Virus record (IMG/VR): IMGVR_UViG_3300023184_000094
Span: 8,637 to 72,636 of that record
Reading direction: 5' to 3' (one strand)
DNA length: 64,000 bases
Source: a virus
Below the pieces are notes generated by a model that was given only the letters and a program-made list of their open reading frames with translations, had not been told where the DNA came from and did no database searches. Position 1 is the stretch's first letter, and each line of letters starts with the position of its first letter. Of this stretch, positions 357-62,485 are shown piece by piece. The position numbers were made by a program, and so were the translations under genes.

Positions 357-795
357 AAGATGTCTGCGACATCTGCATTTCGCTTGCGCTCATGCTTTTC
401 TTTCTATTCTAATTAACTTTGACTCTTACTATGATTAATGTAAGCTCTTAATGCTTTATCTAGATCCTTCAGTCACAATTTACCTACTACAGGCAAATTG
501 CAACGATGAACTTTATCTGAGTCCTGTTCGCACACTAACTAGAAGAGATTGCATTCACTTGCACGGAGGCGGTCAGCCGGTACCCCCTACTCTAGATTTA
601 TCTGGCGGTAGCTCACATAGCCGTAGTTAGCCAACTATGTTTTTGCTCTCAGGTTGGTTTGTTTCAGAGCCTGAATCTTTTGGTTTTTACACCTAATTGA
701 TTGCCGTGTCGTCCTGTGTGTAGTCTTCTCTACACGTTCCAAGTAGGCATAACCTACCATCTCCTCAGGACACAGAAATACATCTGCATCATTGA
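357..795 (-). ncRNA. Putative structured non-coding RNA or cis element (alternatively a replication origin)
   Basis: ORF-free region with several stems whose mismatches read as G-U wobbles on the minus strand (GTAGGT/GCCTAC, ACATAGTT/GGCTATGT, CAATTTGCCT/AGGTAAATTG), a multibranch junction closed by GTCCTG/CAGGAC, and a possible pseudoknot CTAACTA/TAGTTAG. Confidence 0.5.
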
Positions 796-798
796 CTG

Positions 799-1233
799 TT
801 ATTTGTTAATTTTTAAATCTTTAACGGAATTCTTACCTAGTCTGATCTGGATGATGCCATTGTAGTTGTTTTCACGCAACAATACATCTTCCTTGAACTG
901 GTAATAGGCTTCCAAGTAGTTAGTTTCGCCACGTGACTCACATAGATGTATGATTTCACGAGTGAACTTGTCCTTGCCTAGTCGGTCTATGTCTGCTTGG
1001 AGTCTGGGACTTGAGCCCCAGTATTCTTTCCAATCAGTTTCGACAGTTTCCCTGCGCTTGTTTTTCTTGCCTTTTAGAGGTGGTCTCTTTTTGATGGTTT
1101 TGAAGTATTTCCTGCCAACATAATCATAGCCGTTGACAGTGTTAGTTATTCTGTAGATAAAGCCATAATATTCATTGATATCCTCAGACTCAAAGGGTTT
1201 ACCACGATAAGTCCAAGGATAATCATAGGTCAT
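799..1233 (-). CDS. GIY-YIG family (Seg-like) endonuclease
   Basis: GFIYRITN...YVGRK equals the GIY-YIG motif; YWGSS, conserved E in YLEAYYQ and YN near the C-terminus. Nuclease domain only. Confidence 0.8.
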   Translation of the reverse strand: MTYDYPWTYRGKPFESEDINEYYGFIYRITNTVNGYDYVGRKYFKTIKKRPPLKGKKNKRRETVETDWKEYWGSSPRLQADIDRLGKDKFTREIIHLCESRGETNYLEAYYQFKEDVLLRENNYNGIIQIRLGKNSVKDLKINK

Positions 1234-1649: not shown

Positions 1650-2663
1650 TTACCATTCGGTTGCGTATTGTTGATTTACCACTGATATATTACATTTAGT
1701 CTTACATTCGGTCCAGGAAAAATTTTCAAATTTCTCGTCCCAGAACGCATCTTTCAACACAAGATCTAGTGGTTTTTTGTTTAAATTAAAACTCCGACCT
1801 AGGTCTAACCATTCATTATTATGTGAATAACGATTAGCTACCCAACAACAAGGAAAGAAATCCCCTTGGCTGTTGATGAATAAACCTTTGGAGCCAATAC
1901 CACACAAGGCTTTAACACCATTTATTTCTTTAGCTGATTGGTATAATCTTAGATTAGTCGCATGCCCTACGGTGGATTCCGTTCGTCCAGAAAGATTTAT
2001 AATTTCTCGTTGGAATCTATAATTACTACTGATTAATTCATCACGGGGCTGTAACTGGTCATTTTCGGGATATGCTGAATAAATCTTATGAAATTTAGTG
2101 CTACGGGTAATTTGAAACTGATCAAATCTCAATTTCCTTGCCAACTGCTCCATGTCTTTTAATCGATCTTGGTTAAAACTAAAAGCAATAGCGTCCCAGG
2201 TCATGTATGTATCACTGACAAATCTAAATGCAATAATGCCTGCTGTAATACTACTCCAATCACTGTTGATTCTGTATTGCTCATTACTAGTTTGATCCCA
2301 GCCATCTAAACTAAAATGTATGTGATCATTATGATCTAATACAACGCCTAGCTGTTGCCACCACTCAATACTTTTATAGCTTCCATTGGTAATAATAACA
2401 AACTTAATTGGTTTAACGCTCTTAAAGTATTTGATTACATCTATTAGATCATGTGCGTAGATAGGATCTCCGTCATCACCACAGAATGTAATCTTTTCTA
2501 CATTATTCTGGATAAACTCTGGAGTAAAATTTCTTTTAAAGAAATCTAGTTTAAGTTCGGTGTTGACTAGGGTATCAGGAACTTCTGTGCGAGCACAACG
2601 TGGACACTTCAAGGTACACTTACTTGATATTTCTATGTGCCAATGCCACGTTGCTAGTTTCAT
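1650..2663 (-). CDS. Radical SAM protein with C-terminal twitch/SPASM-like domain
   Basis: CTLKCPRC (CxxxCxxC), GDDGDP, ITNG, and C-terminal C...GDFFPCC...CKTKC. Confidence 0.85.
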   Translation of the reverse strand: MKLATWHWHIEISSKCTLKCPRCARTEVPDTLVNTELKLDFFKRNFTPEFIQNNVEKITFCGDDGDPIYAHDLIDVIKYFKSVKPIKFVIITNGSYKSIEWWQQLGVVLDHNDHIHFSLDGWDQTSNEQYRINSDWSSITAGIIAFRFVSDTYMTWDAIAFSFNQDRLKDMEQLARKLRFDQFQITRSTKFHKIYSAYPENDQLQPRDELISSNYRFQREIINLSGRTESTVGHATNLRLYQSAKEINGVKALCGIGSKGLFINSQGDFFPCCWVANRYSHNNEWLDLGRSFNLNKKPLDLVLKDAFWDEKFENFSWTECKTKCNISVVNQQYATEW

Positions 2664-4432
2664 GTAATATCGATATCCGTATTATAGCTGGTAAATCCGT
2701 TTTCTTTTACAACGGTAAGAACATTATTCACACGACCACCTAGTTCATCTCTATGTGATACTAGCCAAATTGATTTATGTGCATCACGCGACATCTTCTT
2801 AAGGATAGCCATGGCATTCTCTACACCCGACGCATCCATGCCCGAATCAATCAATTCATCGATGAATAACAAGTTGATAGGTTGATATAAACTTTCCCAC
2901 ACATCACGGAAGCTCCACGATAAGGAAAGTATAAGTCTATTACGTTCACCACGGCTTAGATTGTCAAAGTCTAGCTCACGTCCTAGTTCAGTGATGTTGA
3001 CGCTTAGGTCATTCATAAACACCACGGTATGGGGTAAGCCAATACGGTCAAGATATTGGCTCAGTCTGGCGTTCAAGTAGCTCAGATTTTGATCGATGAT
3101 TCTCTTACGGATATAAGAATCTTTATTAGTTAATAGCTTGTATAGGAATTCCTGATGATCTTTGACACGGCTAAGTTCATTCATCTTAGTATAATCAATT
3201 TCAGCAAGTGCAGTGGCCTTCATATCTGCGATCTGTTCAGTGTAAGGATCATCCTCTGCTGTCTTGCTGGTGATCTGTTCTTGTATGCTAGCGATACTAC
3301 TACGATGTTGGATAGCATCACCTTCATTATCATAGAATGTGTTGGGCATAGATCCTAGCTCACCCAATTCTTGTTTTGCTAGGATCAATGCTTCTAAATC
3401 TCCAGCGTGAATACCTTGCTGTATTTCTGCATCACGAAGTTTGCTTTCTTTGATGGCTAATAGTTCAATATGTTTTTCATCATGTAAATCTTGTTTACAA
3501 GTATTACACTTATGTTCACGTAGAGTAGCAATATCACCTGTTAAGTTGGCGATACCTTTGACTTCACGAGATAGGTCCTGCTCACTACGTGCTATGGCTT
3601 TGTCTAAATCTGTAATGTCTTTACGTTTTTGATTATAAGTTGATAATTCTTTATGTGCGGCTATCTCCGCGTCAATATCTAATTTAAGTAATTCATCTAA
3701 TGCTGTCTGTAATTTAGCGACATCATCTTTACGTTTAGTTAACCACAACATCTGACGACGCTGTGTGGCTTCAATCTGTTCTTCAATACGCTTATTGGCA
3801 TCAGTCACTGCCTTGATGTTGGCTTCTTCCTGTTGTATGGCGTCCTTTGTAGCCTTACTCTGCTCTTTGAGTGCTTCTGCCTTCTCACTCAATAAAGTAA
3901 TACCCAACAGTTGCTCGATTATAGCACGTTGATCGTTTGGCTTTAATGCTAGGAATGGTTCTGTGTATGTATTCAGAGCCACCACGTGCTTGAACATCTC
4001 ATGACTCATGCCCAATAAACGTTCAATCTCTTGTTGCGTTTCTCTGCTGTCGCCTTGACTGTTGTCGTCTTTGGCTTCTTGTTCCTGTTCACCGATATAG
4101 AATTTCAATACATTAGGCTTACGACCACGTTCAATCTTATAGTCGATACCATTGACCTCAAATTCGATAGTGACCAACATGGCCTTGGTATTGGTTTTGT
4201 TTACAAGATTATCTTTACGTATGTTAGTAAGTGCTGTTCCATATAAGGCATAGCTAAGAGCATTGATGATCGTAGTTTTACCTGTGCCATTTCTGGCACC
4301 AGTATCGTCACCACCCAGGTCGATATTTTCACCCAAGACTAATGTAAGGTCTTTACGGTCAAAGTTAACAGCCTGGGTGCTATTACCCACGCTCATAAAG
4401 TTTTTAACTGTGAGATATTTTATCTTGAACAA
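2660..4432 (-). CDS. gp46: Recombination endonuclease ATPase subunit (T4 gp46 / Rad50 / SbcC-like)
   Basis: Walker A NGTGKTT, coiled coil with CNTC zinc hook, signature LSRGE, Walker B LLFIDE, H-loop VSH. Confidence 0.93.
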   Translation of the reverse strand: MFKIKYLTVKNFMSVGNSTQAVNFDRKDLTLVLGENIDLGGDDTGARNGTGKTTIINALSYALYGTALTNIRKDNLVNKTNTKAMLVTIEFEVNGIDYKIERGRKPNVLKFYIGEQEQEAKDDNSQGDSRETQQEIERLLGMSHEMFKHVVALNTYTEPFLALKPNDQRAIIEQLLGITLLSEKAEALKEQSKATKDAIQQEEANIKAVTDANKRIEEQIEATQRRQMLWLTKRKDDVAKLQTALDELLKLDIDAEIAAHKELSTYNQKRKDITDLDKAIARSEQDLSREVKGIANLTGDIATLREHKCNTCKQDLHDEKHIELLAIKESKLRDAEIQQGIHAGDLEALILAKQELGELGSMPNTFYDNEGDAIQHRSSIASIQEQITSKTAEDDPYTEQIADMKATALAEIDYTKMNELSRVKDHQEFLYKLLTNKDSYIRKRIIDQNLSYLNARLSQYLDRIGLPHTVVFMNDLSVNITELGRELDFDNLSRGERNRLILSLSWSFRDVWESLYQPINLLFIDELIDSGMDASGVENAMAILKKMSRDAHKSIWLVSHRDELGGRVNNVLTVVKENGFTSYNTDIDIT

Positions 4433-4433
4433 A

Positions 4434-5450
4434 TTATAGGTGCCTATAGATATCTAATAATAAATTAGGATCGTAATGATCACTGGCGATATTAGTTAGT
4501 TGACTGGTCACGATACTGTCGATACTTTCAAATTTAATATTACCTAGCATGATGTCTGTACCAATGTCTGCATTCTTAACTGGTAATAATGTTAGTTCAC
4601 GTAGTTGGTAAGTGCCAACAAATGTTTCTTTAATGAACGTTGCTTCTTCATAACTGATATCAATGTCTAGGTTAACACGACAGTGCATGTTTGGTAATAG
4701 TAATGCTTCTGGGGTTCTAAGAACATCACTGAGATTCAACACACGATATCTAGGTTGTCCTGGCCAAGTATGGAACACAGGCTCTTGCCCCCACTCTAAG
4801 ATCATCATGCCACGAGCATCATCACCAGCGTCGGCATAGTTATGTGGAAAACAATTACCCATATAGGTAATATTCCCACGTGTCTGACGTTTGTGAAAGT
4901 GTCCAGTGAATACCTTCTCTACACCATTGAATGCACCTTCTTTGATCTCTCCGGTGTCGGGCATAGCTACCATGGCATTCATATAGAAGTGTGGTAGTTC
5001 TAGATGTCCAAACATATATTTGGCTGAAATCTTACCCAGCTTCTTATGATCATCACCAACTAGCCAAGGAACGATACTGACATCACCTTCACTATAGAAG
5101 TCGTTGATGATCTCAATGTTGGGAATATGACGTGCCCATTCGGCACTTTGAATATCACGCTTGTCACGATAGTATAAGTCATGATTGCCCGGAATAAAGA
5201 ACACACGATCAAAGGCCTTGCCCAATAATTCTAAGGCGGTAAGACTATAATTCAGGGTGACTATGTTGATAGCGGCACGATTGTTATGCCAATCACCTGT
5301 CATGAAACAGGTATCACAGCCCTCAGCTTTGGCGGTTTCTATAAACCATTTGACAAAGTTAAGACAATCGTCGTTGTGTGTGGCGCTGTTAGACTTTAAT
5401 CCAAAATGAATGTCAGTCAGAACAGCCGCTTTCTTGAATAGATTAGCCAT
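4434..5450 (-). CDS. gp47: Recombination endonuclease nuclease subunit (T4 gp47 / Mre11 / SbcD-like)
   Basis: Metallophosphoesterase motifs DIHFG, GDWH, GNHD, GHFH; adjacent to gp46. Confidence 0.93.
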   Translation of the reverse strand: MANLFKKAAVLTDIHFGLKSNSATHNDDCLNFVKWFIETAKAEGCDTCFMTGDWHNNRAAINIVTLNYSLTALELLGKAFDRVFFIPGNHDLYYRDKRDIQSAEWARHIPNIEIINDFYSEGDVSIVPWLVGDDHKKLGKISAKYMFGHLELPHFYMNAMVAMPDTGEIKEGAFNGVEKVFTGHFHKRQTRGNITYMGNCFPHNYADAGDDARGMMILEWGQEPVFHTWPGQPRYRVLNLSDVLRTPEALLLPNMHCRVNLDIDISYEEATFIKETFVGTYQLRELTLLPVKNADIGTDIMLGNIKFESIDSIVTSQLTNIASDHYDPNLLLDIYRHL

Positions 5451-16581: not shown

Positions 16582-19500
16582 ATGGCTGAAAGAAAAACCT
16601 ATAACTTTTTACCCACTACCTTTAGATCTGACACGAACCAAAAGTTCTTGGCGGCTACCATGGATCAGTTGGTATCAGAACCAAATTTTACCACCTTGTA
16701 TGGTTATATTGGTCGTAGATTTGCTCCCACTTATAAAAGCACAGACAGCTATGTCCTTGAAGACACTGCGGTCAGACAAGACTATCAACTTGAACCTAGT
16801 GTAGTCATACGTGATCAACAAAATAATATCACATTCTTTGCGACCTATGTTGATCTACTTGAAAAGATCAGCTACTATGGTGGTATCACCACTGATCAAA
16901 ATAGATTGTTTGAACAAGAATATTATACCTTTGACCCACGCATCAGCTATGACAAGTTTGTTAACTTCAGCCAATACTATTGGCTACCTGATGGTCCTGA
17001 CTTTGTAGAAGTTAATACCACAGGTCTTGATCTCAGCATAGATTATGTAGTTACTAGAGATGCAGCCAATGGTCGGTATATATTCAAGAGCAATGGTGTA
17101 GTAGACAACAGTATTATTTTAGCACGTGGAGGTAGTTATACCTTTACTGTCGATCAACCAGGCGTTCCATTCTGGTTACAAACTGAGCTAGGCGTAGATG
17201 GAGTAATCTCAGCGACACCTACACTAAGTTCAAGAGATATCCTAGGCATCCAGAATAATGGTATCGATGTTGGAACTATAACATTCGATGTTCCGCAGAC
17301 TTCAGCACAGGATAGATTCATAGCTCAACAACTAGTATACACGGTTGACTACGCGACCCCATTTAATACTTTACCATTCAGCAGATTCCACAATCAATTA
17401 GTATCAACATTTTTAGCCAACTATCCACAGTATGGTGGAATCACAGGCCAACTCAACGGCAAGCATCTAGTGTTTGTTAATGTCCAACTAGCGACCAATG
17501 TGGGCGAAGAAGTATGGACCTATCCTGAAGTAGTAGTTGATACATTACCAGCAACAGCTGGGGCATCAGGCACCAATGTTATTACCTTGTCATCGACAGA
17601 TAAATTAATCGCTAATCTTGCAGTATCTGGCACAGGTGTTCCAAGTGGAACTACTATCGTCAGCGTTGATTCAGCTAATGCTAATGTTACACTTAGCGCA
17701 AATCTTACTACCACAGCCAGTGGTGCATATACATTTACTGCCCCTAACTTTGACGCTGGCTATGTAGTGCCGGATGATCAACGTTACGGTGTATTCCGTG
17801 TAGTCTATGTTGATGCTGGTATTAAAAATGCAGATGGATCTACTGACTATGTGACAAGACTGGTATTTGAACAAGCAGTTAATGTAGATGAAAAAGTCTA
17901 TGTAAGATTTGGTGTTGCTAACGCTAATAAAGAATACTACAAAGACTACGATGGCTTTATGAAACAGGTTCCAATAATTACCTGTCAATTAAACAATCTA
18001 TGGATTCAAGATGGTACTAGAGCAGACATTTATAAAAATGTGCAGCTAGTAAATTACAATGGGTGGACTATTGATGTTGATACTGATATCATTGGCCAAT
18101 TGGCCTACACCAGTCCTAACGGTGTAAACTTTACTAGTGGATTAAAAATACAATTTGCAGAAGATGTAACACCTACCAGCTATCAAAATCGTCAATTCTA
18201 TGTAGAACAAGTTGGCGATACTAGCCAATACAACGGTGGTATAAGACTAGTTCCAGTTGACGAATTAATTACTCCAGAAGCATATAATGCTGAACTGGCA
18301 CTAAATTATCCAAACGAAATATTCCCTGATTATATCACTATCAATCGTGCCAGTGTTGATCGCAACGCCTGGTCACGTAATAACCGTTGGTTCCATATTG
18401 ATGTAGTTTTACTCACTGCTGAATATAACGGAACACAACCAACCATTGATCAAGCTAGCCGAGCCCAACGTCCTATCGTGCAGTTTGACTGCGATCTACA
18501 ATTGATCAATGAAGGTCGTATTGGACTTGATCATATTGATATCTTAGATACCAGCACTAAAAATGCCTTTACAGAATTACAAGGACAGACTTATGCGATA
18601 GCATTTGGTGTTACCTTGTTTGATGGTCTGCGTGTGATCTTTGCCGCCGATGAAGATCCATTAGTCCGTAATAAAATTTATGTTGTTAGTCTAGTCCAAT
18701 ATGAAGTTGATGATCAACAGCTACCTACAGGTCCGTACCACATTGAATTGTCATTAGCTGACGACGGAGATGTAGCGACATACTCTACCGTAGTAGTTGC
18801 TATTGGCCAATACAAAGGTAGTCAATGGTGGTATGACGGTGTCACTTGGAATGCTAGTCAGACTAAATCAGCACTGCAACAACCTCCATTGTTTGACATA
18901 TTAGATGCCAGTGGCAAGAGCTTTTCAACTTATACGAGAAGCACATTTACAGGTACAGAAATTTTTGGTTATGTGCGTGCTACCTCAGGAACAACAGACC
19001 CAATCTTGTCAAAAGGTATCATTCCTACGATCTATGATAGTAACAATAATCCTGTAACTAATTTCTATCTTAGCTACAAGACATTCACCACACAAGGCGA
19101 CATCAAGTTCCAAAACTATTTCAATACTGATACATTTAGCTATGTCAATGCCAATGATATTATAACCACACAGCTGATTAATACTGGTTACATACAAAAA
19201 ATCTTAGCTGCTGAAACTCTACAACCTAAAAACACTTGGGATACAGTTCCTGAACCTAGCCATCAATACCAACAGATTAGTTATATCTTTGATGGCACTA
19301 ATAATCCATTTGTCGTAGACATCGTTCCCGAAGTAGAAGCATCGATACCTTATACTAAAGTATTCCAAAATTTCCAATACCTACAACCAACAGATTGGAC
19401 CTTAGCCAACAGTGCTGTTCGATTATCTACATCATTGACAGTGGGTGATCAAGTTGACATCTTGATCTATAGCCAACAGATCAGTAAATTAGGTTTCTAT

Positions 19501-22500
19501 CAAGTTCCACAAAACTTAGATCTAAATGCACAAAATATCGACATAGATACACTAACACTTGGTCAGATACGTAACCATTTAGTAGCATTGGCACAGAACA
19601 GCACCATCGTTGAAGGTAATATCCTAGGACAAAGTAATCTTAGAGACATTGATATTAAACAACAAGGTGGCACGATCCTACAACATAGTAGTCCAACACC
19701 TTATGCAAGTTTGTTCTTGATTGACAAAACAGCTAATTATGTAAATGCATTGCGTTATGCACAACAAGAATATACTAAATTTAAGAATAAGTTTTTAGAA
19801 CTCAGCACCTCCTTGCCTGGCATACAACCAACAGATCCAGCGACCAGTGTTGATCTTATATTAGCTAAAATTAATCAAGTTAAGAATAAATCATTCCCTT
19901 GGTTCTACAGTGATATGGTGCCATATGGCACTTTAATTAATATCGTCAGCCAACAACCGGGTGTAGATGGGTTCTTAGTATTTGACCCATTGAAAACCAA
20001 CTATGAAATCACCAACATATTCAATAGTCAAGAACTTAGTAATAAGGCAGTATTAGTCTATCGCAATGGTGTGCAGTTACTTAACAATGTTGACTATGCA
20101 TTTAATACCACAACCCCATCGATTGACTTCTTGATTGGTCTGGAAATAGATGATGTCATCAAGATCGTAGAATACAGTAATACCGACGGTAACTATATTC
20201 CAGAGACTCCTACTAAACTAGGCTTATGGCCAATTTTCCGTCCAGAGATATTCTTAGATGATACCTATAGAACACCAACTACTGTTATTAGGGGTCACGA
20301 TGGTAGTATTACACCAGCATTCGATGACTTCCGTGATGACTTTTTATTAGAGTTAGAAAAACGTATCTACAACAATATCAAGTTACCATTGAGCGGCACA
20401 TTTGGTGATATATTCCGAGTCATACCGGGCAGGTTTAGAACTAGCGAATATACCCTGGCTGAAATTGACCAATTAGCATCTATCTATTTCTTAAACTGGA
20501 TTGGAAACAATAAACTAGATTTCAGCACCAATGATACATTTGAACCCAATGATCCATTTACTTGGAACTATGCAGGCAGCACTGATGTTATCGATGGTGC
20601 AAACTTACCGGGTAGTTGGCGTGCTTGTTATCAATACTACTATGATACTATCCGACCACACATCACACCTTGGGAAATGTTGGGATTCTCATCTGAACCA
20701 GATTGGTGGCAATCATACTATGGTCCTGGACCATACACCGGTGGTAACAAACTCTTATGGGATAATCTAGAAGCAGGTCTTATCGTTGCTGGATTCCGCC
20801 AAGGTGTAGACCTAAACTATAAACGTCCAGGACTGAGCCAGATCATTCCGGTAGACGTAAATGGTAATCTATTAAGTCCACAACAGATATTAACACGCTC
20901 GCTGAATACTAAACGAGCGGCAGCAGCCTGGCAGGTAGGTCAATATGGTCCTGTAGAATTTGCCTGGCGCTCAAGCAGTGAATTCCCTTATGCTGTCCAG
21001 CAAGCTCTGGCATTGGCTAAACCAGCCAAGTATTTTGGATCATTGATAGATACCTACAATTATTCATACATCAATCCATTATTTACTATACAAGATTCAG
21101 CATCTGGGGTAACCACAGGATCTGAACAGTATCTGACTTTAACTACAAATCATCATATTACACAGAACGTTATCCAGTTCAATGGTGATACGAGTTCAGG
21201 CACATTATATAGAGGTGCAGGCTATTTAAACTGGATCGCTGATTATCTTATCAGCCAAGGTATTAATCCTTCTTCGTATATCTCACCATTGCTAAAAAAT
21301 TTCCAAGTTAACCTAGCCTACAAGGTTGCAGGATTCACTGATCAAAAATATCTAGAAGTATTAGCTGAACAGGTCAGCCCTACTAGCACCAATGCCAGCG
21401 TATTAATACCAAACGAAAACTACGGTGTTTATCTAAATGAAAATCCCGTGCCCATTGACAAGTTGATCTATAGTGCAGTTATCGTTGAAAAGACTGATCT
21501 TGGTTGGACTGTCAGAGGTTACGATTTATTCAACAGTTTCTTTACTATCATTCCAAGCATAGTCAATAGTAATGCCTATAGAATAACTGTGTTGAACAGC
21601 AGTGCTACGATATTCAACAACTACCAAAACTTAAAATTAAATGTGCCATATGGTCATGAATTTACCACAGCACAACAGGTAGCAGACTTCTTGATAGGCT
21701 ATGAACGTTATCTGATAGCACAAGGCTTTACATTCACTGATTCAGATCCGATGCTAAATGAAATGCGTGATTGGAAACTATCAGTTAAAGAATTCTTGTA
21801 TTGGATACAACAAGGTTGGCGAGCAGGCAGTATTATCGTATTATCACCAGTGGCTGATAGTATCAGTGCTGTAACGATTGGGGCCATCACTGATGGAATC
21901 GAAGACAGCCAATATGCCAGCAAGGTATTAGATCAGAACTTTAATTTGGTTAGAAATAACAATTACAATGTCATGCGATCAGCTACAGAGTTTAAACTTA
22001 ATTTTACTGATCCTGCAACAGTCATAGGATATATTGAAGTTGATCTAGTGCAGTATGAACATGCCTTGGTGTTTGATAATGTCACAGTGTTCAATGATGT
22101 CATCTATCAACCAGAAAGCGGTAATAGACAGTTTAGATTAAAACTGGTAGGGCAAAAAACAGCAGCGTGGAATGGTAGTTTATCGGCTCCTGGATTCATC
22201 TACAATTCCGGAGTAGTCGCAAATTGGAATCAAGGTAAAGATTATCTGCAAGGTGATCTGGTCCAATACAAAAGCCAATATTATACTGCTTTGGTAGATG
22301 TAGTGGCCAGCACATCATTTGAATTCCAATACTGGCAACAGATTGATCAAACAAAAATACAAAAAGGTCTGTTACCTAATTTCTCAACACTAGCAGTGCA
22401 ATCAAAATCATTCTATAACTCATATGCCGAGATCAAAGATCAAGATCAGATGAGTTACAGCCATGCATTAATTGGCTTTAAACCGAGACAATATCTATCA

Positions 22501-25500
22501 GACCTTGGTGTAACAGAAACTACACAGATAGAATTCTACAAAGGATTTATCGCACAGAAAGGTACTGCTAATGCTGTTAATCAGATGCTTAAAGCTACAT
22601 TTAATAACCTAAGTAGCGATATTAATTTCTACGAAGAATGGGCCATGCGTGTTGGTGAATATGGTGCATTGGATACTAACCCGTTTGTAGAGATCCCATT
22701 GAATGAAAGCGCATTTGGTGTTAATCCAAGTGTGGCAAGATTTGTTGGTGAAGCTGATAATAATCTAGCTGACGGCACTACAGTATTCAATCAATCACAG
22801 CTTTATAAATCTTACGGAACATATACCGGTAATATAGCACTTAATAGGACTGCGCACAGCGACTATGACAATGATATTCCAACAGCAGGATATGTCAACG
22901 TTGATGATGTTGATACGCAGATATTTGATCTAGCTAACTATCAAGATCTAGATGGTCAGATAGCCAACATGGGCAGTGGGTATACTATATGGTGTGCTAA
23001 AGACTTTAGCCAACAGTGGAATGTCTATCGTGTAACAGAAACTAATAATTTTGTAACACAGGTCGCTAATGCTCTCAATGGATATATAACATTTACCACA
23101 CAAGATCCTCACAAATTTATCGCAGGTAGTGTATTCCTAGTCAAAGACTTTGATCCAGCATTTGATGGATTCTATCAAGTATATAAGGTAATGACAGCAT
23201 CTAGTGTCATGGTAACCTATGCAGGCAGCACAGCTAATCTAACTACCCAAGATGGTCTAGGTGTATTATTCCGTATGGACAGTATGCGATTTACCTATAT
23301 GGAAGACAGTCGTGTTTATGGCTTATTAAATCCACCCAATGGATGGAAAGTTGGTGATAAGATTTGGATCGATGACGACGCTGCTACAAATGCAGTGCAA
23401 GGTCAACCATATGGATCACAACCAAGTGGCACCTGGAAAGTCTATGAGAAACAACATCCGTGGGCAATAGAACAACAATTAACTAAACAATCAGGTGAAT
23501 ACAGCGCCGGAGATGGATTTGGATCAAGCGTGAAAATGTCTGGTGACGGATTGATAGTGGTCACCGGAGCACCAAACTCTAACAGCAATGTTGGTGTAGT
23601 TAATACATTCTTAAAAGATTTTGAAGGAGTGTTCCAAGAAAGTTTCAGTATCAGTCCACTGAGCGCAAATACTCGAGCATTTGGTCACGCTGTTGATCTT
23701 GGCACTGATCCATCCTCTAATACAGTATTAGCAGTTGGTGCTCCAAAGAGCTATGGCAATGTGGGTTATGTCTACGTCTATTACAAATCAGAATTTGCCA
23801 CTGCGTTTGATCGTAGTCAGATCATCGTAGGTAATGTGTTGTCTCAAGGACAGTTTGGCCACAGCCTAGCATTTAGTCAAACAGGTGATTGGTTGTATGT
23901 GGGTGCACCTGGTGATACTGCAATATCTAGCGGTAATGTCCATGTCTATGGTCTCAACAGATACATTCCAGTTGCAGAACAGATAACTTCAGTTAGTAGT
24001 TTATATACATTGACATTAAGTTCAGCTCTAGGTACTACAGCCAATGTCGGTGATATAATCACACAGGCTGCCACTGGTGCACAAGCTACTATTACCTATG
24101 TTGAAAGTGCCAGCTCTTATCAAGTAGATAATGTAATTAACTTTGTTTATGATGCAAACGTAGCTGTTGGAAATGCTAACATATCAGCTAAACTTAGTAT
24201 CACCACCGGCGGGTTCTTGTCTAATGTAGATGCATATCCGTTAACTTCAAATACCTATGCTGTGACTAGTAACATATTCTTAACAGCATTTACTCCAGCC
24301 GTCACTAATGATCCAAGTTCACTATTGATTACCAATGCGACCAAGACATTTATTCCAAATCTTGATTATTATCTAAATGGAACAACGATCAACTTTGTCA
24401 ACAATGGTAATGTCGCAAACCCACAAAAACTTGATACTGGTACTATAAGCATTAAACAGAAACCGTATTATCAATTATTAACGACATTGACATTACCAAC
24501 CAGCAACACTGGGGCACAATTTGGCTTTGCATTGTCAAGCAGTTTCGATGGCGCACAACTAGCAGTTGGCACACCTAACGATAATATCGTTGGTACCGGA
24601 GGTGATCTTAAGATTGGTGCAGGTAGTGTTTATGTATATGATCGTGTGATCGAAGCATTTAACACAGTTATAGATGCTGATCCGAGCACTGGTGGTCAAG
24701 ACTACACTACAGAGAATCCAATCGCATCAGTCCACAAAGTGACTATAGATAACGTTGAAGTTACTAACTATACTGTCGTTGGTACTAACAAGATCAGATT
24801 TATTACTCCGCCACCAATCGGTCGCGTCCTATACGTTGAAGTTAATCAGTTTAATCTATTAGAAAGATTGATCGGAGTAGACAGCTTAGAAGGTGGCCTT
24901 GCTGCGATCCAAAGTAATGCGGCATTCGGAACTAGCTTAACGATCTGTTCAAACAACTGTGCGATCTATGTAGGTGCGCCTAACTATGATAATGGCACAG
25001 AATATAATAGTGGTGCTGTCTGGAAATTCCATAACAGAGGTCGACTATATGGTACCAACACTGGTTATACTGTAAACCCAGTGTTTATGCCTGGTGATAA
25101 GATTCGTCTAGACAACTTTGAGATCACTGTCAGTGGTCGTTGGATGCCTGCTACTATTGGTAATATTCTAACATTGAGCAGTAATGTCCGTGCTAATGTT
25201 GGCGATTATATCACGCAGACTGTATCTGCTACAGGTGTGGCTAATGTAACAGTATTGGTTGATACTCCTGCAACCGGAAGTAAATTTATCACAGTTGGTG
25301 ATTATAATAATGCTAATGTCTTCAGTTGGTCATCAGGCAATGTTGTTAGTGTTGTCTATGGTGCTGCAGTCACAACAACCACAGCGCAGTTAAGAGCCAG
25401 CTTAGATAGTTTAGTCAAAGACATCAATGACGCGAATCTATTAGGTATTTCAGCAGTTAATCAAGCAGGTAGATTAAGATTAAATTCTGACAGCACCAAA

Positions 25501-28500
25501 GCTAAAAACCTACTACGTATCCTATCAGGTAGTAACCAACCTAACAGCCCAGGTGTGTATGCCGATGCTGATTTGATCATATTTGCATTCATGCAGATCA
25601 TCGTCAATCCGTATGGCGCACCAGGCGAATACTTTGGTAACAAAGTCAAGCTGGCAGCAAATGCGTATATGTTGGTCATTGGCAGTGCCCGTGGAACCAC
25701 AAAAGAATTTACTACGTTTGATGTGTCTACTACCCCACTTGGCACTACCATGGATCAAAGCACTACGAGATTGTATGACAGCATATACGGTAGTGGCAGT
25801 GTGTATGTTTATGAATTGTATGATGATCCACGTAATGCTGTAGAAGATCCAGGTCGTTATAGTTTTGCACAACAGATAGATCCAGGTAGTTTGACCGCTG
25901 GTGCACAATTTGGTTATAGTCTAGACATTGAAGGAACATTTATCACAGTATCTGCTCCAGGTACCACCCTAAGTAGCAAACCTGCACAGTCTGGAACTGT
26001 TTATATATTTGCTAACCCAATAATGACACGTGGTTGGGAACTTATCCGTTACCAACAACCTAAAGTAGACCTTGATAGTATCAGTCGTGGTTATCTATAC
26101 GATAACACAACCAGCTTGATCAAATATAATCTACAGTTTATTGATCCTGCTAAAGGCCGCATCCTAGGACAAGCCGAACAAGAAATTTCATTCAAAACAG
26201 AATATGACCCTGCTATCTATAACAGAGGAACTAATCCTAAAGCAGATATCAATCAGAACGTCTATTGGGGCAACAACCAAGTTGGCCAAGTATGGTGGAA
26301 TCTTGCTAAACTCAGATACATCGACTACGAACAAGATACATTAACCTATCGTAGTTTATACTGGGGGCAACTATTCCCAGGATCAACAGTTGAAGTCCTT
26401 GAATGGGTGAGAAGCAATTATCTACCAAGCCAATATGCGGCTAATGGCGGTGATGGCATACCTGAATATGCAGATGACAGTGCCTACGTAGAAGAAATCT
26501 TTGTAGATCCGGTGACTAGCATCATCGTCACCCGTTACTACTATTGGGTTAAGAATAAAACCAGCGTTGATCCAAATAACCCAAGTAGGAAGTTACCAGT
26601 TAGTGCTATCACAGACTATATACTAAATCCTAAAAATCAAAACATTGCCTTTGCTGCGGTGATACGCAATGATGCTTTAGCATTCTATAATGTCAGTAAT
26701 TATCTGTCAGCTGATAATACTATCATGCATCTTGATCATCAATTGATGATTAATACTGATATCATACACAGTGAATATGAGCTAGTGCAACAAGGCAATC
26801 CAAAGAATCTCATACCTACCAAGATAGTTAATAAATTAATTGACAGTCTAAGTGGTATAGATCAATCAGGTGCGACAGTGCCGGATCCAAGACTAAGTCA
26901 AGCTGACAGATATGGTATCAGCTTTAGACCAAGACAAAATATGTTTGTTGATAGACTACAAGCTGTCAACGAGATGGTAAGTTTTGTCAATGATATATTT
27001 GCTGTTAACCCTATAACTGAACAATTTGATCTAACAGGATTAAATGCACAAGAATCTACACCTAGCTACAAGAAAGGTGAATACGATCAAGGAGTGACAA
27101 CTGAAATAGAATTGTCTTATATCAATACAGATGAACTCACTCCCGGATATCGAGTATTAGTAAACAACGATACAGCCCAGAATGGTCTTTGGGTATTATA
27201 CCAATTATCAGAATCTAAGACTTGGGAAATCATCAAAGTCCAAAGTTATAAGACCAGTTTGTATTGGAACTATGTTGATTGGTATGCTGACGGATATACC
27301 TCAGCGACTAAACCGGACTTCAGTGTTACCACTACTAATGATGCATTAAAATTACGTGCTGTTGGTGGAGAGATTATTTACATCAGTAATGCTACGGGTG
27401 CAGGTACTTGGCAATTGGTTGTAGTCCAAGATGATGGAACATTGCAGGTAGTAGGTATACAAAATGGCACTATACAGCTCAATACATCATTGGGTGATTT
27501 TGCAGGCAATGGGTTAGGCTTTAGTAATCAAGACTTTGACAGCAACAGATTTGACCAGAACCCCAACAATGAAATCCGTGCTATCGTAGAGTCATTGAAT
27601 AACGAACTGTTTACCAACACCTTAGAAGGTGAGTTTAACAACATGTTCTTTATTCTAGTTAACTATCTATTGACAGAACAAAATTATGTTGACTGGTTAT
27701 TTAAATCTAGCTTTATCAGTGTCACACATAAATTAAGATCATTAGCACAGTTCCCAAGCTATGTGGTTGACAATCAGACCTACTATCAAGACTATATTGA
27801 TGAAGTTAAACCTTATAGAACTAAGATACGTGAATATTTAATTGACTATACTGGTGACGACACATATGAAGGCAGCGTCACAGACTTTGACTTACCAGCT
27901 TACTATGACACATCAACTGGTTACGGTATATTCCGTAGTCCAAGCGGTGAAGTTCCTTATGTTGAAGAGGATGAAGCGACCTGGCAGACATTCCCATACA
28001 ATCAATGGTATGCTAATAGAAATCTAGTAGTATCAAGTATACAATTAGAAAGCGGTGGAGCCAATTATGCTACTCCGCCTACAGTGACTATCTCTAGCCT
28101 AGATGGCAATGGTAGTGGCGCCGCTGCTACAGCAGTCATAGATGGTAACACTGGCGCTATACTATCAATCACCTTAACTAGCGCAGGCTTTGGATATACC
28201 ACAACACCAAGAGTGACGATCAATGGTAGTTCTACCACACAGGCTAATGCCTATGCAGTGATGAAGAGTCCATTTGCTCGTAGCTTTGATACCAAGATGA
28301 AGTTTGACCGTATCAGTTATGACAGCACAGTTCAACGTTGGGCAGCTAATACAACCTATACAGCAGGACAGATCGTCAGCTATGCATTCCAAGATGGCAA
28401 CGTGATGATACGTAAGGCCTATAGTGTAAACTCAAACATTACCACAGCTTCTACATTTATTCCAAGTGACTATACTGAGTATTCAGCAAACGCATTTAGT

Positions 28501-41046: not shown

Positions 41047-41383
41047 CGCGGCCATGGCCGCCTTGGGCGGCACTATAGTCCCAGAATCGATCGAGTATCG
41101 TTTGCACTATGATGATTCTGGAAAGATCATCTCGTGTAGCCAACAGAACCATCCAGAAGATACACAATATTTGGTTGTTGATCAGGAAACCTACGCTAAC
41201 TACATGAAATATAGTGTAGATGTTAAAAAGAAACAACTCAAAAAGGTTGTAATTGACCCCGGAGTGAGTGTACAATTAAAGCGTAGTAGCCAAGGTTATG
41301 CGGTTGTTCGTCAACACGCAGGATTAATTTTGGAAGAAGGTGAGACTTGGACGGAAGTGGAATATTATGAACCAAATAGTTGA
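41024..41383 (+). CDS. Hypothetical protein
   Basis: Overlaps both neighbours in the operon; start at 41018 or 41024. Confidence 0.6.
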   Translation: MSWEEEFNAAMAALGGTIVPESIEYRLHYDDSGKIISCSQQNHPEDTQYLVVDQETYANYMKYSVDVKKKQLKKVVIDPGVSVQLKRSSQGYAVVRQHAGLILEEGETWTEVEYYEPNS

Positions 41384-42263
41384 TATAGCAGATCTAGACT
41401 GCGTCTATCTTAGTTACGATGAGCCTCGTAAGGAAGAGACTTGGATCAAAATACAGAATATGGTTCCATGGGCCCAGCGTGTAGACGGAGTTAAAGGCAG
41501 TGATGCAGCACATAAAGCCGCTGCCGATGCTAGCACTACAGATCGCTTTGTGTTGATAGATGGTGATAATATACCAGACGCTGAGTTCTTTAACTTACAA
41601 TTAACACTTGATGACACTAATAAAGACTGTGTATTCCGTTGGAAGGCACGTAATACGATAAATGGCTTGATGTATGGCAACGGTGGGTTAAGTTGCTGGA
41701 CTAAAGAATTTGTCTATGCTATGAAGACACATGAGAATACAGATGGCACAGAAGCTAATGATGTAGAGTTTTGTTTTTATCCTAACTATTGGGCCATGCA
41801 TGATTGCTATTCAACTACGTATCCTAACGCAACACCATTCCAAGCCTGGCGAGCAGGTTTCCGTGAAGGAGTAAAGATGTGCTTAAACAGAGGCAAACGT
41901 CCTACATTACAAGAGTTTGAAAATAAAGTCGTTAGTCGTAACTATGATCATTTGTGTATTTGGCAAACTGTAGGCGCAGATGTTGACAATGGCTTTTGGT
42001 CAATATATGGTGCACGCTTGGGCACATGGATGACCATGCTGAACAAAGAATGGGATTATCGACAAGTGCAGGATTTTGATGCCCTGGCAGAGCTATGGAA
42101 AGAGTTTGAGAATGATACACCAGATCATTGCACTAGCATTGGAAATCAATTAAGACAAAAATTAAGTCTACCTATCGTAGACATGGACCCAGAAGAAAGT
42201 AAATTTTTTAAACATCACTATAAGAGTGTATTTAGAAATAAAGGAGTAATGGAACGTGAGTAA
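41367..42263 (+). CDS. Putative glycosyltransferase (GT-A-like)
   Basis: YLSYDEP, RVDGVKGSDAAHKAAA, FVLIDGDN (DxD), AWRAGFREGVKM; ATG 41367 preferred over 41340. Confidence 0.55.
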   Translation: MNQIVDIADLDCVYLSYDEPRKEETWIKIQNMVPWAQRVDGVKGSDAAHKAAADASTTDRFVLIDGDNIPDAEFFNLQLTLDDTNKDCVFRWKARNTINGLMYGNGGLSCWTKEFVYAMKTHENTDGTEANDVEFCFYPNYWAMHDCYSTTYPNATPFQAWRAGFREGVKMCLNRGKRPTLQEFENKVVSRNYDHLCIWQTVGADVDNGFWSIYGARLGTWMTMLNKEWDYRQVQDFDALAELWKEFENDTPDHCTSIGNQLRQKLSLPIVDMDPEESKFFKHHYKSVFRNKGVMERE

Positions 42264-43644
42264 AAGTGAATTTATGAATGCGGCAGAAGAGATGAAAGAC
42301 AAACTAGGGCATAGCCTTTGTCTAGCTAAATGGCAACAGGTAAGCCTACACTTGCCTACTGGACTTAATAATAGTTGCTACCATCCGCCATTGCATGAGA
42401 TCGATGCGCAACCATTGGAGTTCCATCCTAGTGCTTTACACAATACAGCATATAAGAAAGAACAACGTAAAAAGATGCTCAATGGTGAGCGTCCTAAAGA
42501 ATGTAACTACTGTTGGACCATGGAAGATGCTGGGCATCTTAGTGATCGTCATTATCGTAGTGGTGAGCCCTGGGCGGCAGAACACTACAATAACATAGTC
42601 GATCAACCATGGGACGCAGATGTTACTCCTAGTTATGTAGAAGTAAATTTCAGCCACGGTTGTAATCTTGCTTGTAGTTATTGTAGCCCACAGTTCTCAA
42701 CTGAATGGGGCAAAGATATTGATCGTTGGGGAGCATATCCTACAAAGAGTCCACACAATGATCCTATGCATTTTAAAGGACGTCGTCAACCTATTCCTGT
42801 GCGTGAAAATAATCCCTATGTGGAAGCATTTTGGCGTTGGTGGCCTGATCTATACGGTAGCTTAAAACACTTCCGCATGACAGGTGGCGAACCTCTGATG
42901 GATAAGAACACGCATCGCGTGTTTGATTACATACTTGCTATGCCCAAGAAAGATCTACATGTAGATGTTACTAGTAACTTTAGTGTAGAACCAGAACTAT
43001 TTAACAAATATCTAGACAAAGTAAAACAACTATGCCAGGGTGAGCGTATTGAACATTTCATGCAGTATGTAAGTTTAGACACAGGCAATCCTGATCACGC
43101 GGCTTATATTCGTCATGGACTAAGTCCAAGTCGCCTACACAGTTATGTTCACAAATATCTAACTGAAGTTCCGCATCGCAACAGCTTGACGTATATCATC
43201 ACAATGAATAACCTTAGTATCTTAGGCCTTCAACAGTTACTAGAACATATACTTGAACTACGTAAGCTGTATAGCACTGAATACCAACGTGTTTGGTTTG
43301 ATACTCCTGTGTTGAGAACGCCAAGTTGGCAAAGCCTGCAGATACTGCCTGAAAGTTATACACGTATATTAGAAAATGTCATCAAGTGGATGAAGTTAAA
43401 TCGATTAGATGAAACCAGTGATCGTTATGATGGATTTAAAGATTATGAGATACAACGCTTAGAGCGTGATCTAGACTGGATGAAGAAAGGTAAGAAGCTA
43501 AACGAAAAGTATCTACATGATACACGTGCTGACTTTTATCGCTTCTTTAACGAGTATGACAAACGCCGCCAAACAGATTTCCTAGCAACATTTCCACAGA
43601 TGAAAGATTTTTGGCAGGAGTGTAAATGGCATGCCGAAAACTAA
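42256..43644 (+). CDS. Radical SAM protein with N-terminal twitch-like domain
   Basis: CNLACSYC, TGGEP; N-terminal CLAKW...SCYH...CNYCW. Confidence 0.88.
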   Translation: MSKSEFMNAAEEMKDKLGHSLCLAKWQQVSLHLPTGLNNSCYHPPLHEIDAQPLEFHPSALHNTAYKKEQRKKMLNGERPKECNYCWTMEDAGHLSDRHYRSGEPWAAEHYNNIVDQPWDADVTPSYVEVNFSHGCNLACSYCSPQFSTEWGKDIDRWGAYPTKSPHNDPMHFKGRRQPIPVRENNPYVEAFWRWWPDLYGSLKHFRMTGGEPLMDKNTHRVFDYILAMPKKDLHVDVTSNFSVEPELFNKYLDKVKQLCQGERIEHFMQYVSLDTGNPDHAAYIRHGLSPSRLHSYVHKYLTEVPHRNSLTYIITMNNLSILGLQQLLEHILELRKLYSTEYQRVWFDTPVLRTPSWQSLQILPESYTRILENVIKWMKLNRLDETSDRYDGFKDYEIQRLERDLDWMKKGKKLNEKYLHDTRADFYRFFNEYDKRRQTDFLATFPQMKDFWQECKWHAEN

Positions 43645-44716
43645 ATTAAAATCGTTTGACTGCCAGGATATAAATTATTTTGGATCAACATATCAAAATA
43701 TTGAACTTAAAATTTGTAAAGAACTAGAAGAATTTTTTACTTTTGATGATTATATTCCAATTATTACAAGATTGTTCTTTAGTTTAATGAAAGAAAATAA
43801 TACAATATCAGATAAATCTGTAAATGCTTTAAAAGTATATTTAGATAGTAATCATAATACAAAAGTAATAATCCTTGATATATTCGAAGGAACTAATATA
43901 ATTGATTTTATTGACACAGTTGGATTAACAAAATATTGTGAGTTAAATCAAATTTATTTTATAACCAGCGGGGAATTGCCACAAAATTGGAAATTCGTTA
44001 ATATCCATGTTTTTGCTGATCACACGTTTACAACTCATAATCAATATATGACATATACACATCATGATGATATATTTTTAAAAACAGTGAAACCATATAC
44101 GTTTTTATTTTTAAATAAGGTAGCAAGAGATCATAGACAAGCGTTAATAAATCAATTATCAGATAAAAATCTATTAGATAAAGCATTATGGTCAGATCTG
44201 AGCCAAGGAATTAAAATATCTGATGAATATAAAGATATGTTTAATAATAATAACTATAGCGGTTTAAAAATTAATAATATTGTATTTCCTTTAAATTGGC
44301 CAGACGGCAAAATTTGCCCTGAATTATTTATTGATACATATTTTTCAGTAGTTACCGAAACTAATTATAATAATCCATATCAATATTATACAGAAAAAAT
44401 ATATAAAACAATCTTGATCGGACATCCATTTATTGCTGTCTCATCTAAGGGATTTTATAAAGGTCTAAAAAATCAAGGTTATAAAACATTTGAAAATCTA
44501 ATAGATGAAACATTTGATCAAATTGATGATAACGATCTTCGTTTGCGTAAAATTGTTAATTCAATCGAATACTTATGTAAACAAGATCTAATAAAATTTT
44601 TAAAAGAAGCTGAACATATTTGTAAACATAATAGACTAACATTCTTTGAAAATTTAGGAAAAAATCAATTTAATAATCATTATAATTTAAAAAATTTTTT
44701 AGAACAACTAAACTAA
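43631..44716 (+). CDS. Putative glycosyltransferase-like protein (GT10/GT-B-like C-terminus)
   Basis: FSVVTET...YTEKIYKTILIGHPFI...GYKTF resembles the YxTEK motif of GT10-type folds; very AT-rich gene. Confidence 0.45.
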   Translation: MPKTKLKSFDCQDINYFGSTYQNIELKICKELEEFFTFDDYIPIITRLFFSLMKENNTISDKSVNALKVYLDSNHNTKVIILDIFEGTNIIDFIDTVGLTKYCELNQIYFITSGELPQNWKFVNIHVFADHTFTTHNQYMTYTHHDDIFLKTVKPYTFLFLNKVARDHRQALINQLSDKNLLDKALWSDLSQGIKISDEYKDMFNNNNYSGLKINNIVFPLNWPDGKICPELFIDTYFSVVTETNYNNPYQYYTEKIYKTILIGHPFIAVSSKGFYKGLKNQGYKTFENLIDETFDQIDDNDLRLRKIVNSIEYLCKQDLIKFLKEAEHICKHNRLTFFENLGKNQFNNHYNLKNFLEQLN

Positions 44717-44718
44717 TA

Positions 44719-62305: not shown

Positions 62306-62484
62306 TCTTCAAATATCTTTTTCATCGCGATAAAATGCTTGCGTTGTGCCTTTATGTTCTTTTTAACAAGATCAAATTTAGCATTGCCTTTCATACCAGA
62401 CATGATACCTAGTAGCTCGTCATGCGCGGCAATATGATAATCACATGATTCGACTATTAAGCGTTCAGCTTCTGCGACTTCCAT
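62302..62484 (-). CDS. Hypothetical protein
   Basis: Likely start MEVAEAER at 62484, just after the upstream stop at 62486. Confidence 0.55.
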   Translation of the reverse strand: MEVAEAERLIVESCDYHIAAHDELLGIMSGMKGNAKFDLVKKNIKAQRKHFIAMKKIFEE

Positions 62485-62485
62485 G

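Follow-up and report, generated by a model that had tools for sequence, protein, structure and literature searches.

A phage RNA behind a minimal GIY-YIG nuclease gene is probably a diverged member of the Polynucleobacter-1 class

Introduction

What occupies the long gap behind a small nuclease gene in the genome of an uncultured phage? The window analysed here is a stretch of 64,000 nt (64 kb) from a 72.6-kb IMG/VR record that is estimated to be 21% complete (IMGVR_UViG_3300023184_000094, positions 8,637 to 72,636). Its intergenic region 283-798 lies between two convergent genes and adjoins the gene of a 144-aa GIY-YIG nuclease. An earlier note on this DNA had claimed that the region encodes a large structured RNA of no known family, read in the sense of the nuclease gene and possibly its partner in a ribonucleoprotein (RNP). 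We conclude, with a probability of roughly 85%, that the region contains a non-coding RNA (ncRNA) gene of ~430 nt at window positions 358-788 of the minus strand, and that this RNA belongs to the Polynucleobacter-1 class (Rfam RF01718) as a diverged member.

After chaining of open reading frames (ORFs), 283-798 was the longest stretch of the 64 kb without a credible ORF, as the earlier note had observed. A 59-aa plus-strand ORF at 451-630 is its lone interruption, and there is no ORF of ≥60 aa at the RNA locus in either sense. Two further gaps without an ORF of ≥50 aa were seen at 41047-41339 (293 nt) and 62306-62485 (180 nt), and neither gave an Rfam match. The length of ~430 nt given by the note was borne out, but its span of 357-1233 takes in the nuclease gene.

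A conserved RNA with two pseudoknots

Among 80 IMG/VR loci found via the nuclease protein, 76 carry the RNA on the same strand, and the contigs of the remaining four end ≤74 nt from the nuclease gene. A 17-base degenerate motif for the window type of core was found in at least 119 IMG/VR contigs, and the canonical core motif, taken from an alignment published in 2010 (see below), in at least 120. The RNA core can be identical where the neighbouring nuclease is just 36-47% identical. In 185,579 bacterial and archaeal genomes the core pattern matched 48 times, and a profile search identified no clear family member among these matches, one of which was marginal (E 7.5e-4) and confined to the motif. 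Likewise, 50,697 GenBank phage records gave no relevant blastn match to the whole element or to its 61-nt core. The RNA appears to be phage-specific.

The minus-strand fold was better than that of shuffled sequences (z -3.06, with 0/100 shuffles as good), and the plus-strand fold gave a z of -1.17 (14/100 shuffles as good). With RNAalifold, 69 pairs were predicted from 47 sequences and 31 of these showed compensatory changes. We then evaluated a supplied two-pseudoknot structure on an alignment of 56 sequences that were <93% identical over the core. Paired cells amounted to 82.8% compared with 72.0% in shuffles (0/500 as high), which ignore phylogeny, and they dropped to 39-46% when the partners were slid by 1-3 columns. 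Changes on both sides were found in 38/63 pairs, including 7/7 pairs of the pseudoknot 624-630/535-541 that the earlier note had predicted. For helix S1 of the core an alignment-free count was made as well. At four of its six positions 107/107 distinct sequences have standard pairs; the number of pair types at a position ranges from 1 to 5, and three of the four positions vary. The slid-partner control and the number of pair types are stronger arguments than the shuffle control. Several pairs are G-U in 52-56 of the 56 sequences and would read A-C on the opposite strand. Since such G-U pairs occur only in the sense of the nuclease gene, as had also been noticed earlier, the fold belongs to that strand. 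We have little doubt that this is a real, large and pseudoknotted phage RNA.

The coordinates of the parts, given below from 5' to 3', were verified by direct reading of the sequence, which placed the five hairpins and the loop complementarity of the earlier note where it had described them.

771-788, minus: H0, small 5' hairpin starting ~10 nt past the nuclease stop codon; closing pair C-G, U-A or U-G in two alignments (by eye)
711-771, minus: 5' three-way junction in which H1 encloses H2 and H3 (RNAalifold, 47 sequences)
766-771 with 711-716, minus: H1, GTCCTG with CAGGAC, enclosing H2 and H3
742-758, minus: H2, GGTAGGT-TAT-GCCTACT, inside H1
718-735, minus: H3, GTGTAG-AGAAGA-CTACAC, inside H1
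682-693, minus: H4, small hairpin, GC/GC/UA with CG variants
675-681, minus: conserved joiner AAA(A/U)GAU after H4
648-675, minus: H5, hairpin whose inner helix has 2 bp; paired cells 91% (hairpin) and 98% (inner helix)
616-639, minus: H6, hairpin CATAGTTG/CGGCTATG; 79% paired, both-sides changes in 8/8 stem pairs
624-630, minus: 5' strand of pseudoknot 1 (PK1), the H6 loop CUAACUA, complementary to UAGUUAG
535-541, minus: 3' strand of PK1, UAGUUAG; 84% of cells paired
565-606, minus: core double helix (S1 and S2) forming pseudoknot 2, with the invariant CUAGAGUAGGGRGUAC
601-606 with 572-577, minus: S1, second pseudoknot, interleaved with S2
582-587 with 565-570, minus: S2, 100% paired; one G-C/A-U exchange (43/13)
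590-593 with 544-547, minus: P-a, AGAG/CUCU, closing the junction around S2 and Hi; invariant in 56/56
550-563, minus: Hi, hairpin; both-sides changes in 3/4 pairs
504-530, minus: H7, hairpin bearing RepA; 41-66% of cells paired (MAFFT), weakly defined
511-522, minus: RepA, 12-nt repeat ACUCAGAUAAAG in the loop of H7
473-503, minus: H8, 13-bp hairpin TTGCAATTTGCCT/AGGTAAATTGTGA between the repeats; 88% of cells paired, both-sides changes in 6/13 pairs
454-465, minus: RepB, AUCUAGAUAAAG, direct repeat of RepA, single-stranded, after H8
396-453, minus: variable A-rich linker, poorly conserved in length and sequence
442-456, minus: H9, small variable hairpin of the linker
394-406, minus: purine run UAGAAAGAAAAGC of the linker
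375-395, minus: H10, hairpin capped by a GNRA-type tetraloop and containing tandem G-A mismatches; covariation at the closing pairs (AU 27, UA 14, GC 6)
358-374, minus: H11, terminal 7-bp hairpin; both-sides changes in 3/7 pairs (2, 2 and 1 of 47 sequences)
304-342, both strands possible: terminator hairpin shared with the convergent plus-strand gene (terminator-like plus-strand site 309-338)

The core consists of two pseudoknots around ~60 invariant bases. The invariance of P-a means that covariation neither supports nor contradicts this four-pair stem. In the 5' junction, whose conserved joiners are GAGGAGAU and UGGAAC, each of the H1, H2 and H3 pairs changed on both sides in 1-25 of the 47 sequences, and in H5 this was found for 4/6 pairs, with 1/2 in the inner helix (56 sequences). 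The H7 stem is variable and its register shifts between subgroups. Two similar modules, alike over ~25-33 nt and each ending in a 12-nt repeat, flank H8. The H10 loop occurs as GCAA, GAAA, GAUA, GUAA or GCGA. Diverged members retain the shape of H11 with different stem sequences, and H11 is the probable 3' end of the conserved RNA. The hairpin that follows, 304-342, is the terminator of the plus-strand gene and is possibly bidirectional.

Relationship to the Polynucleobacter-1 class

The Polynucleobacter-1 motif was described by Weinberg et al. in 2010 (PMC2864571), and we found no other paper that names it; a 2023 catalogue (PMC10690425) gives 10,006 viral candidate RNAs. The 2010 Stockholm alignment holds 16 sequences, most of which extend well past the 141 nt of the Rfam model to ~280 nt. 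It contains GGUACCGGCUGACCGCCUC and GGUACCGG...ACCGCCUC, together with the AAAGAU joiner, H5, H6 and a line (SS_cons_1) for the H6-loop pseudoknot that runs to the 3' end. The table row for the motif reads RNA yes, cis-regulatory yes, Burkholderiales, fresh water/estuary (PMC2864571).

The Rfam scan suggested by the earlier note gave no match for the window, either at the gathering threshold or at E up to 10, other than a single weak one to a terminator-shaped L20-leader at 304-342. Membership was instead revealed by the relatives and by the canonical profile. One relative with a window-type core, L113, whose core can be aligned with the family, has a full-length RF01718 match directly 5' of the core that scores 39.2 bits, above the gathering score of 37 bits of a model that covers the 5' 141 nt alone. 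It was the sole RF01718 match among 32 window-type loci scanned; of the canonical-core loci, 20/20 tested score 55.6-121.1 bits. An nhmmer profile built from 100 canonical loci alone matched the 64-kb window once, at minus-strand positions 353-584, with an E value of 3.5e-21. Since the canonical profile matches here and L113 scores on RF01718, the window RNA is very probably a diverged, full-length member of the class, and the earlier view that it belongs to no known RNA family had to be given up.

The window RNA shares with Polynucleobacter-1 the core GGUACCGG...ACCGCCUC, H5, H6, the H6-loop pseudoknot and, as judged by eye, the UGGAA joiner between two 5' hairpins. In IMG/VR, canonical members follow the same GIY-YIG gene in 56/66 loci and also bear H8, both repeats, H10 (the GNRA hairpin) and H11. 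The two branches differ in S2, which is GGGGGU/GCCUCC in the window but a shorter GAGG/CCUC stem in the canonical alignment, and in the 5' domain. There the canonical form has three hairpins, a GGGA-UGGAA joiner and then a stem enclosing two small hairpins, whereas in the window UGGAAC lies between two hairpins of the three-way junction and the remaining helices differ (by eye). Intermediate forms of the 5' domain can be seen by eye in diverged loci. The full RNA is ~430-500 nt long in both branches and about 450-500 nt in 20/20 canonical loci tested. In loci L266-L292, on phage contigs of up to 345 kb, the RF01718 model covers the first 141 nt alone.

In the 2010 alignment (PMC2864571) the motif ends at the pseudoknot, and neither S1 nor the 3' 170 nt appear there; phage carriers and a position behind a nuclease gene form no part of the account given with that alignment and table row. 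The full length with its 3' extension beyond that alignment is thus new here, as are the jumbo T4-like carriers, the site directly after the minimal GIY-YIG gene and the identity of the repeats. A 15-year-old orphan motif thereby becomes a defined object of ~430-500 nt with two pseudoknots and a fixed site in a recombination operon, of which the Rfam model covers the 5' third alone while missing the whole diverged branch.

The two direct repeats

RepA and RepB are 57 nt apart in the window and 52-57 nt apart among relatives, a spacing that is not a fixed multiple of three. Four positions of the repeat differ between phages and are identical within the same RNA in 106, 106, 104 and 105 of 107 sequences (97-99%). 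Even the rare alleles AUGGGAA, ACAGAAA, GACGAA, GUCGAAA, GCAUAAU and AGUUGAA are the same in both repeats, and canonical Polynucleobacter-1-type loci show the same identity of RepA and RepB. Repeats that are identical base for base within an RNA, yet vary between phages, are an unusual evolutionary signal and give a testable handle on how the RNA works.

Ordinary base pairing was rejected as the cause, since the variable bases have no Watson-Crick partner column anywhere in the RNA (107 sequences). We also rejected the repeats as guides against the phage's own genome, where the motif is not enriched (9 occurrences against 5.25 expected, and 5 against 2.66 in the window), and pairing with the nuclease mRNA, for which there was no covariation and complementarity occurred in 24/82 loci against a shuffled mean of 30.7. 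In the window, codons of the GIY motif at 1152-1162 are complementary to the repeat over 9 nt, a coincidence that fails in relatives. Another idea was template-jumping reverse transcription between the repeats, of a telomerase- or DRT-like kind; it was dropped because the reverse transcriptase domain PF00078 is absent from 5/5 RNA-bearing records, including a complete 329-kb genome; the variable spacing of the repeats was also counted against it.

Three readings of the repeat identity were considered. The repeats may touch each other directly in the tertiary fold, by same-base pairing of parallel strands, they may present two equivalent sites to one external partner, or mutation may homogenise them by template switching between close repeats.

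The neighbouring nuclease

The sole domain match of the nuclease is SegE_GIY-YIG (PF19835), which covers residues 7-124 and profile positions 1-119 of 123 (E 1.7e-38; 132 bits against a cut-off of 25). Residues 2-138 also align to positions 5-142 of the 148 in phrog_447 (E 4.8e-41). Since that profile itself has 148 positions, the nuclease is a complete minimal protein and not a truncated homing endonuclease. By these profile matches, the neighbouring gene encodes a full-length member of the SegE-type minimal GIY-YIG family.

The gene directly upstream was tabulated for 110 loci found via the RNA alone (44 window-type and 66 canonical), and in 86/110 it is the minimal GIY-YIG gene:

minimal GIY-YIG nuclease: window-type 30/44, canonical 56/66
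PDDEXK_15 protein (phrog_244, named Holliday-junction resolvase): window-type 7/44, canonical 1/66
inserted I-TevI-like homing endonuclease: window-type 3/44, canonical 0/66
other gene, or no ORF of ≥80 aa: window-type 4/44, canonical 9/66

The linkage of RNA and nuclease is strong but confounded by the conserved order of the last genes of the gp46/47 operon. In eight loci (L100, L113, L131, L135, L136, L138, L146 and L165) gp46 is followed immediately by a PDDEXK_15/RusA-like resolvase gene and then by the RNA; no GIY-YIG gene is present, and an unrelated nuclease stands at its position. In two relatives (L147:245-946 and L159:95-802) I-TevI-like homing endonuclease genes with NUMOD3 repeats sit exactly between the nuclease and the RNA, and in others a 270-aa gene or a radical-SAM gene is found there. 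The junction between nuclease and RNA appears to be an insertion hot spot.

The earlier note had raised the possibility that the RNA is the RNA subunit of an RNP with the adjacent minimal nuclease, serving as guide or scaffold and supplying target recognition. The upstream position of the GIY-YIG gene in most loci favours this proposal, and so does the occurrence of an unrelated small nuclease (PDDEXK_15) at the same place in 7 + 1 further loci. Furthermore, the 144-aa protein has a catalytic domain alone, and the two repeats differ among phages as short recognition elements might. However, 465 GenBank phage records contain the phrog_447 family, and the RNA core is missing from all of them. 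Since the next gene follows the nuclease homologue so closely in the isolated phages Melnitz-3, S-SSM7 and phiN3 (gaps of 148, -8 and 28 nt), these genomes leave no room for the RNA. Conversely, 3/5 RNA-bearing records have no PF19835 match, one of them being 250 kb long and 71% complete, and homing-endonuclease or other genes intervene in 3 + 4 of the 44 window-type loci. Among 111 distinct protein-repeat pairs, the best nuclease column explains 36% of the entropy of the repeat state, whereas the repeats match each other at 97-99%. Complementarity of the repeats to the upstream 1 kb is not above chance, and they vary at four positions, mostly as R/W, which is much less diversity than guides show. 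Both nucleases would fit a recombination operon on their own account, the phrog_244 family being named for Holliday-junction resolution. With nuclease found apart from the RNA, RNA apart from the nuclease and no residue that tracks the repeats, the proposal is weakened, and we now consider it improbable that the nuclease is a partner of the RNA or that the RNA is its guide or scaffold subunit. We would give equally little weight to a version with exchangeable nucleases, in which the RNA would be the recognition or scaffold subunit for whichever enzyme is encoded directly upstream (GIY-YIG mostly, PD-(D/E)XK elsewhere), with the repeats as paired elements for a two-fold target. If the RNA did work with adjacent minimal nucleases, it would represent a new kind of RNA-dependent nuclease outside the RuvC/HNH world.

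Transcription and possible function

In four metatranscriptome runs, low-depth contigs of relatives (85-99% alike) span the RNA, the nuclease and the genes around them, and three short ones form a bridge from the nuclease stop codon to the start of the RNA. The bridging contigs are compatible with co-transcription of nuclease and RNA. Since the RNA begins ~10 nt past the nuclease stop and no sigma-70-type promoter-like site was found on the minus strand between the two, we infer that the RNA is most probably made as the tail of the gp47-gp46 operon transcript. We tentatively propose, at somewhat less than even odds, that it would then act in trans as a stable scaffold, its pseudoknotted core and two repeats forming one compact binding platform. 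The repeats would touch each other by symmetric same-base pairs on parallel strands, or would offer two equivalent sites to one two-fold partner other than the adjacent nuclease. Under this proposal the RNA would be neither a guide RNA nor the leader of the next gene.

Several points weigh against a diverged Polynucleobacter-1 ncRNA gene with such a function. The window fails the RF01718 model at E up to 10, and with its 5' domain remodelled, the case for membership comes from the core and the 3' part. Shuffling as a control takes no account of phylogeny, and H4 and H7 are poorly defined in the 56-sequence alignment. The metatranscriptome contigs show neither ends nor strand, may include carried-over DNA and define no discrete stable transcript. 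The scaffold mechanism is without a testable experimental or structural precedent, and templated conversion during replication, acting between direct repeats that lie close together, could account for their identity instead. Downstream of the RNA, some canonical loci have a co-directional gene (by eye), and the 2010 authors scored the motif as probably cis-regulatory in their table (PMC2864571).

The RNA might instead be a 3' untranslated structure acting in cis, which shields the operon mRNA from 3' exonucleases or insulates the convergent transcription units and has no function in trans. Its place is invariably the 3' end of a co-directional gene, and a convergent gene faces it in many relatives as well as in the window. 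Both the lack of a promoter-like site between nuclease and RNA and, weakly, the bridging contigs from RNA libraries agree with such a role. We nevertheless find it unlikely, since a length of 430 nt with two pseudoknots and ~60 invariant bases, unpaired or in the core, goes far beyond what mRNA protection needs, and the RNA is better conserved than the adjacent protein and is retained where the upstream gene has been replaced. A size and a double-pseudoknot core of this kind, with many invariant joining bases, also recall catalytic RNAs, and a self-processing ribozyme that cleaves, ligates or branches could mature the end of the operon transcript or free itself from it. Small ribozymes are often found next to nuclease or homing-endonuclease genes, which this RNA adjoins. 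Nonetheless, no Rfam model of a ribozyme, a group I or II intron, RNase P or transfer-messenger RNA (tmRNA) matched the window or 32 relatives at E up to 10, flanking exons are absent, a conserved candidate for a cleavage site was not identified, and contigs cannot reveal RNA ends; a ribozyme is thus a shade less credible to us than the RNP with the nuclease.

The two remaining explanations are highly improbable. The first, implied by the 2010 table ("cis-reg: y"; PMC2864571), is that the RNA serves as a cis-regulatory 5' leader for the gene that comes next, and a co-directional gene starts 30-60 nt past H11 in 6/14 canonical sequences viewed by eye. For the window this is contradicted by gene orientation, the next gene being convergent (plus strand, ending at 282), and an ORF following the RNA is convergent in 17/17 diverged loci inspected; it is the upstream position that is conserved and not the downstream gene. 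In five canonical loci (L270, L271, L273, L274 and L278) a TATAAATA-like or ATAAATA motif was seen by eye ~20-60 nt past the terminal hairpin, followed by a co-directional ATG. These motifs resemble T4-type late promoters, which may explain why the motif was first read as a 5' leader. The other explanation is that the locus works as DNA, for example as a replication origin, packaging site or set of iterons, or is a decayed gene. Direct repeats beside an AT-rich variable stretch are superficially origin-like, and repeat identity is what slipped-strand or template-switch processes need. On the other hand, compensatory changes preserve the pairs, among them G-U pairs that the opposite strand would turn into A-C, neither sense has an ORF of ≥60 aa, the repeat motif is not enriched in the genome, and copying by a reverse transcriptase is made unlikely by the absence of PF00078 from all five records.

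Comparison with other structured RNAs

HEARO and the omega-RNAs of IscB and TnpB are also structured, measure a few hundred nt and have a compact nuclease gene next to them, and the earlier note had drawn this parallel. It does not extend further: the window has no match to the HEARO model, the neighbour is a GIY-YIG (PF19835) or PD-(D/E)XK nuclease instead of RuvC/HNH, no variable guide is present at the end of the RNA, and the nuclease family is widespread without the RNA. No transposon ends were seen, although no search for them was made. GOLLD and ROOL are also large, pseudoknot-rich RNAs of phages and fresh water with no single protein partner, but there is no sequence or model match and the window RNA is smaller (~430 nt); GOLLD and ROOL multimerise, according to a cryo-EM preprint (10.1101/2024.12.08.627333).

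Group I introns with GIY-YIG genes occur in T4-like phages and would also place a structured, pseudoknotted RNA by a GIY-YIG gene. Here, however, flanking exons are absent. The neighbouring genes are complete, the upstream one ending in a stop codon of its own and the downstream one running convergently. The Intron_gpI model matched neither the window nor 32 relatives at E up to 10, and we take the helix order of the window RNA not to fit the group I arrangement P3-P7-P3'-P8-P7'. ARAGORN found 0 transfer RNA (tRNA) or tmRNA genes in the 64 kb, and the window has no Rfam match to tmRNA, tRNA or RNase P RNA. Likenesses seen by eye to conserved regions of RNase P, group I R/S elements, the sarcin-ricin loop, box C/D, CsrA sites and the 16S 530 region were dropped because each lies in a covarying local hairpin or is lost in half of the family.

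Locus and carrier phages

The RNA site is the 3' end of a gp47-gp46 recombination-nuclease operon. This minus-strand operon runs down to 799, upstream of the RNA, and on the other side lies the plus-strand gene of an 86-aa protein, with its end at 282 and the terminator-like hairpin (309-338) behind it. The operon genes are, in order of transcription:

4437-5450, minus: Metallophos (gp47/SbcD-like) gene, the first of the operon genes listed
2660-4432, minus: SMC-type ATPase (gp46/SbcC-like) gene
1650-2663, minus: radical-SAM/SPASM gene
within 1235-1640, minus: gene for a 65-aa basic (Arg/Lys-rich) protein of no family
within 1235-1640, minus: gene for a 61-aa Hc1-type histone-like protein (Pfam E 2.4e-08)
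799-1233, minus: SegE-type GIY-YIG nuclease gene (144 aa), the last of the operon, directly upstream of the RNA

The 61-aa Hc1-type and 65-aa Arg/Lys-rich proteins encoded just upstream of the nuclease may be nucleic-acid binders.

The carriers of the RNA are uncultured jumbo T4-like phages related to PA5oct and Atu_ph07. By the gp46-like protein, the closest isolated phages are PA5oct-like Pseudomonas jumbo phages (49.7% identity), followed by Sinorhizobium phage Phosso and Agrobacterium phage Atu_ph07. Phages of this jumbo T4-like kind that carry the RNA are abundant in fresh water, and many uncultured phages of lakes have conserved it.

Elsewhere in the window, the plus strand of 42256-52791 contains at least six radical-SAM genes (two of them also SPASM) with unannotated genes interspersed, which is an unusual concentration for a phage; the gene at 1650-2663, adjoining the RNA operon, is a seventh of the radical-SAM/SPASM type. 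Amid baseplate and tail genes (gp25-, gp53- and tail-lysozyme-like), a single ORF of ~4,500 aa occupies 16582-30084.

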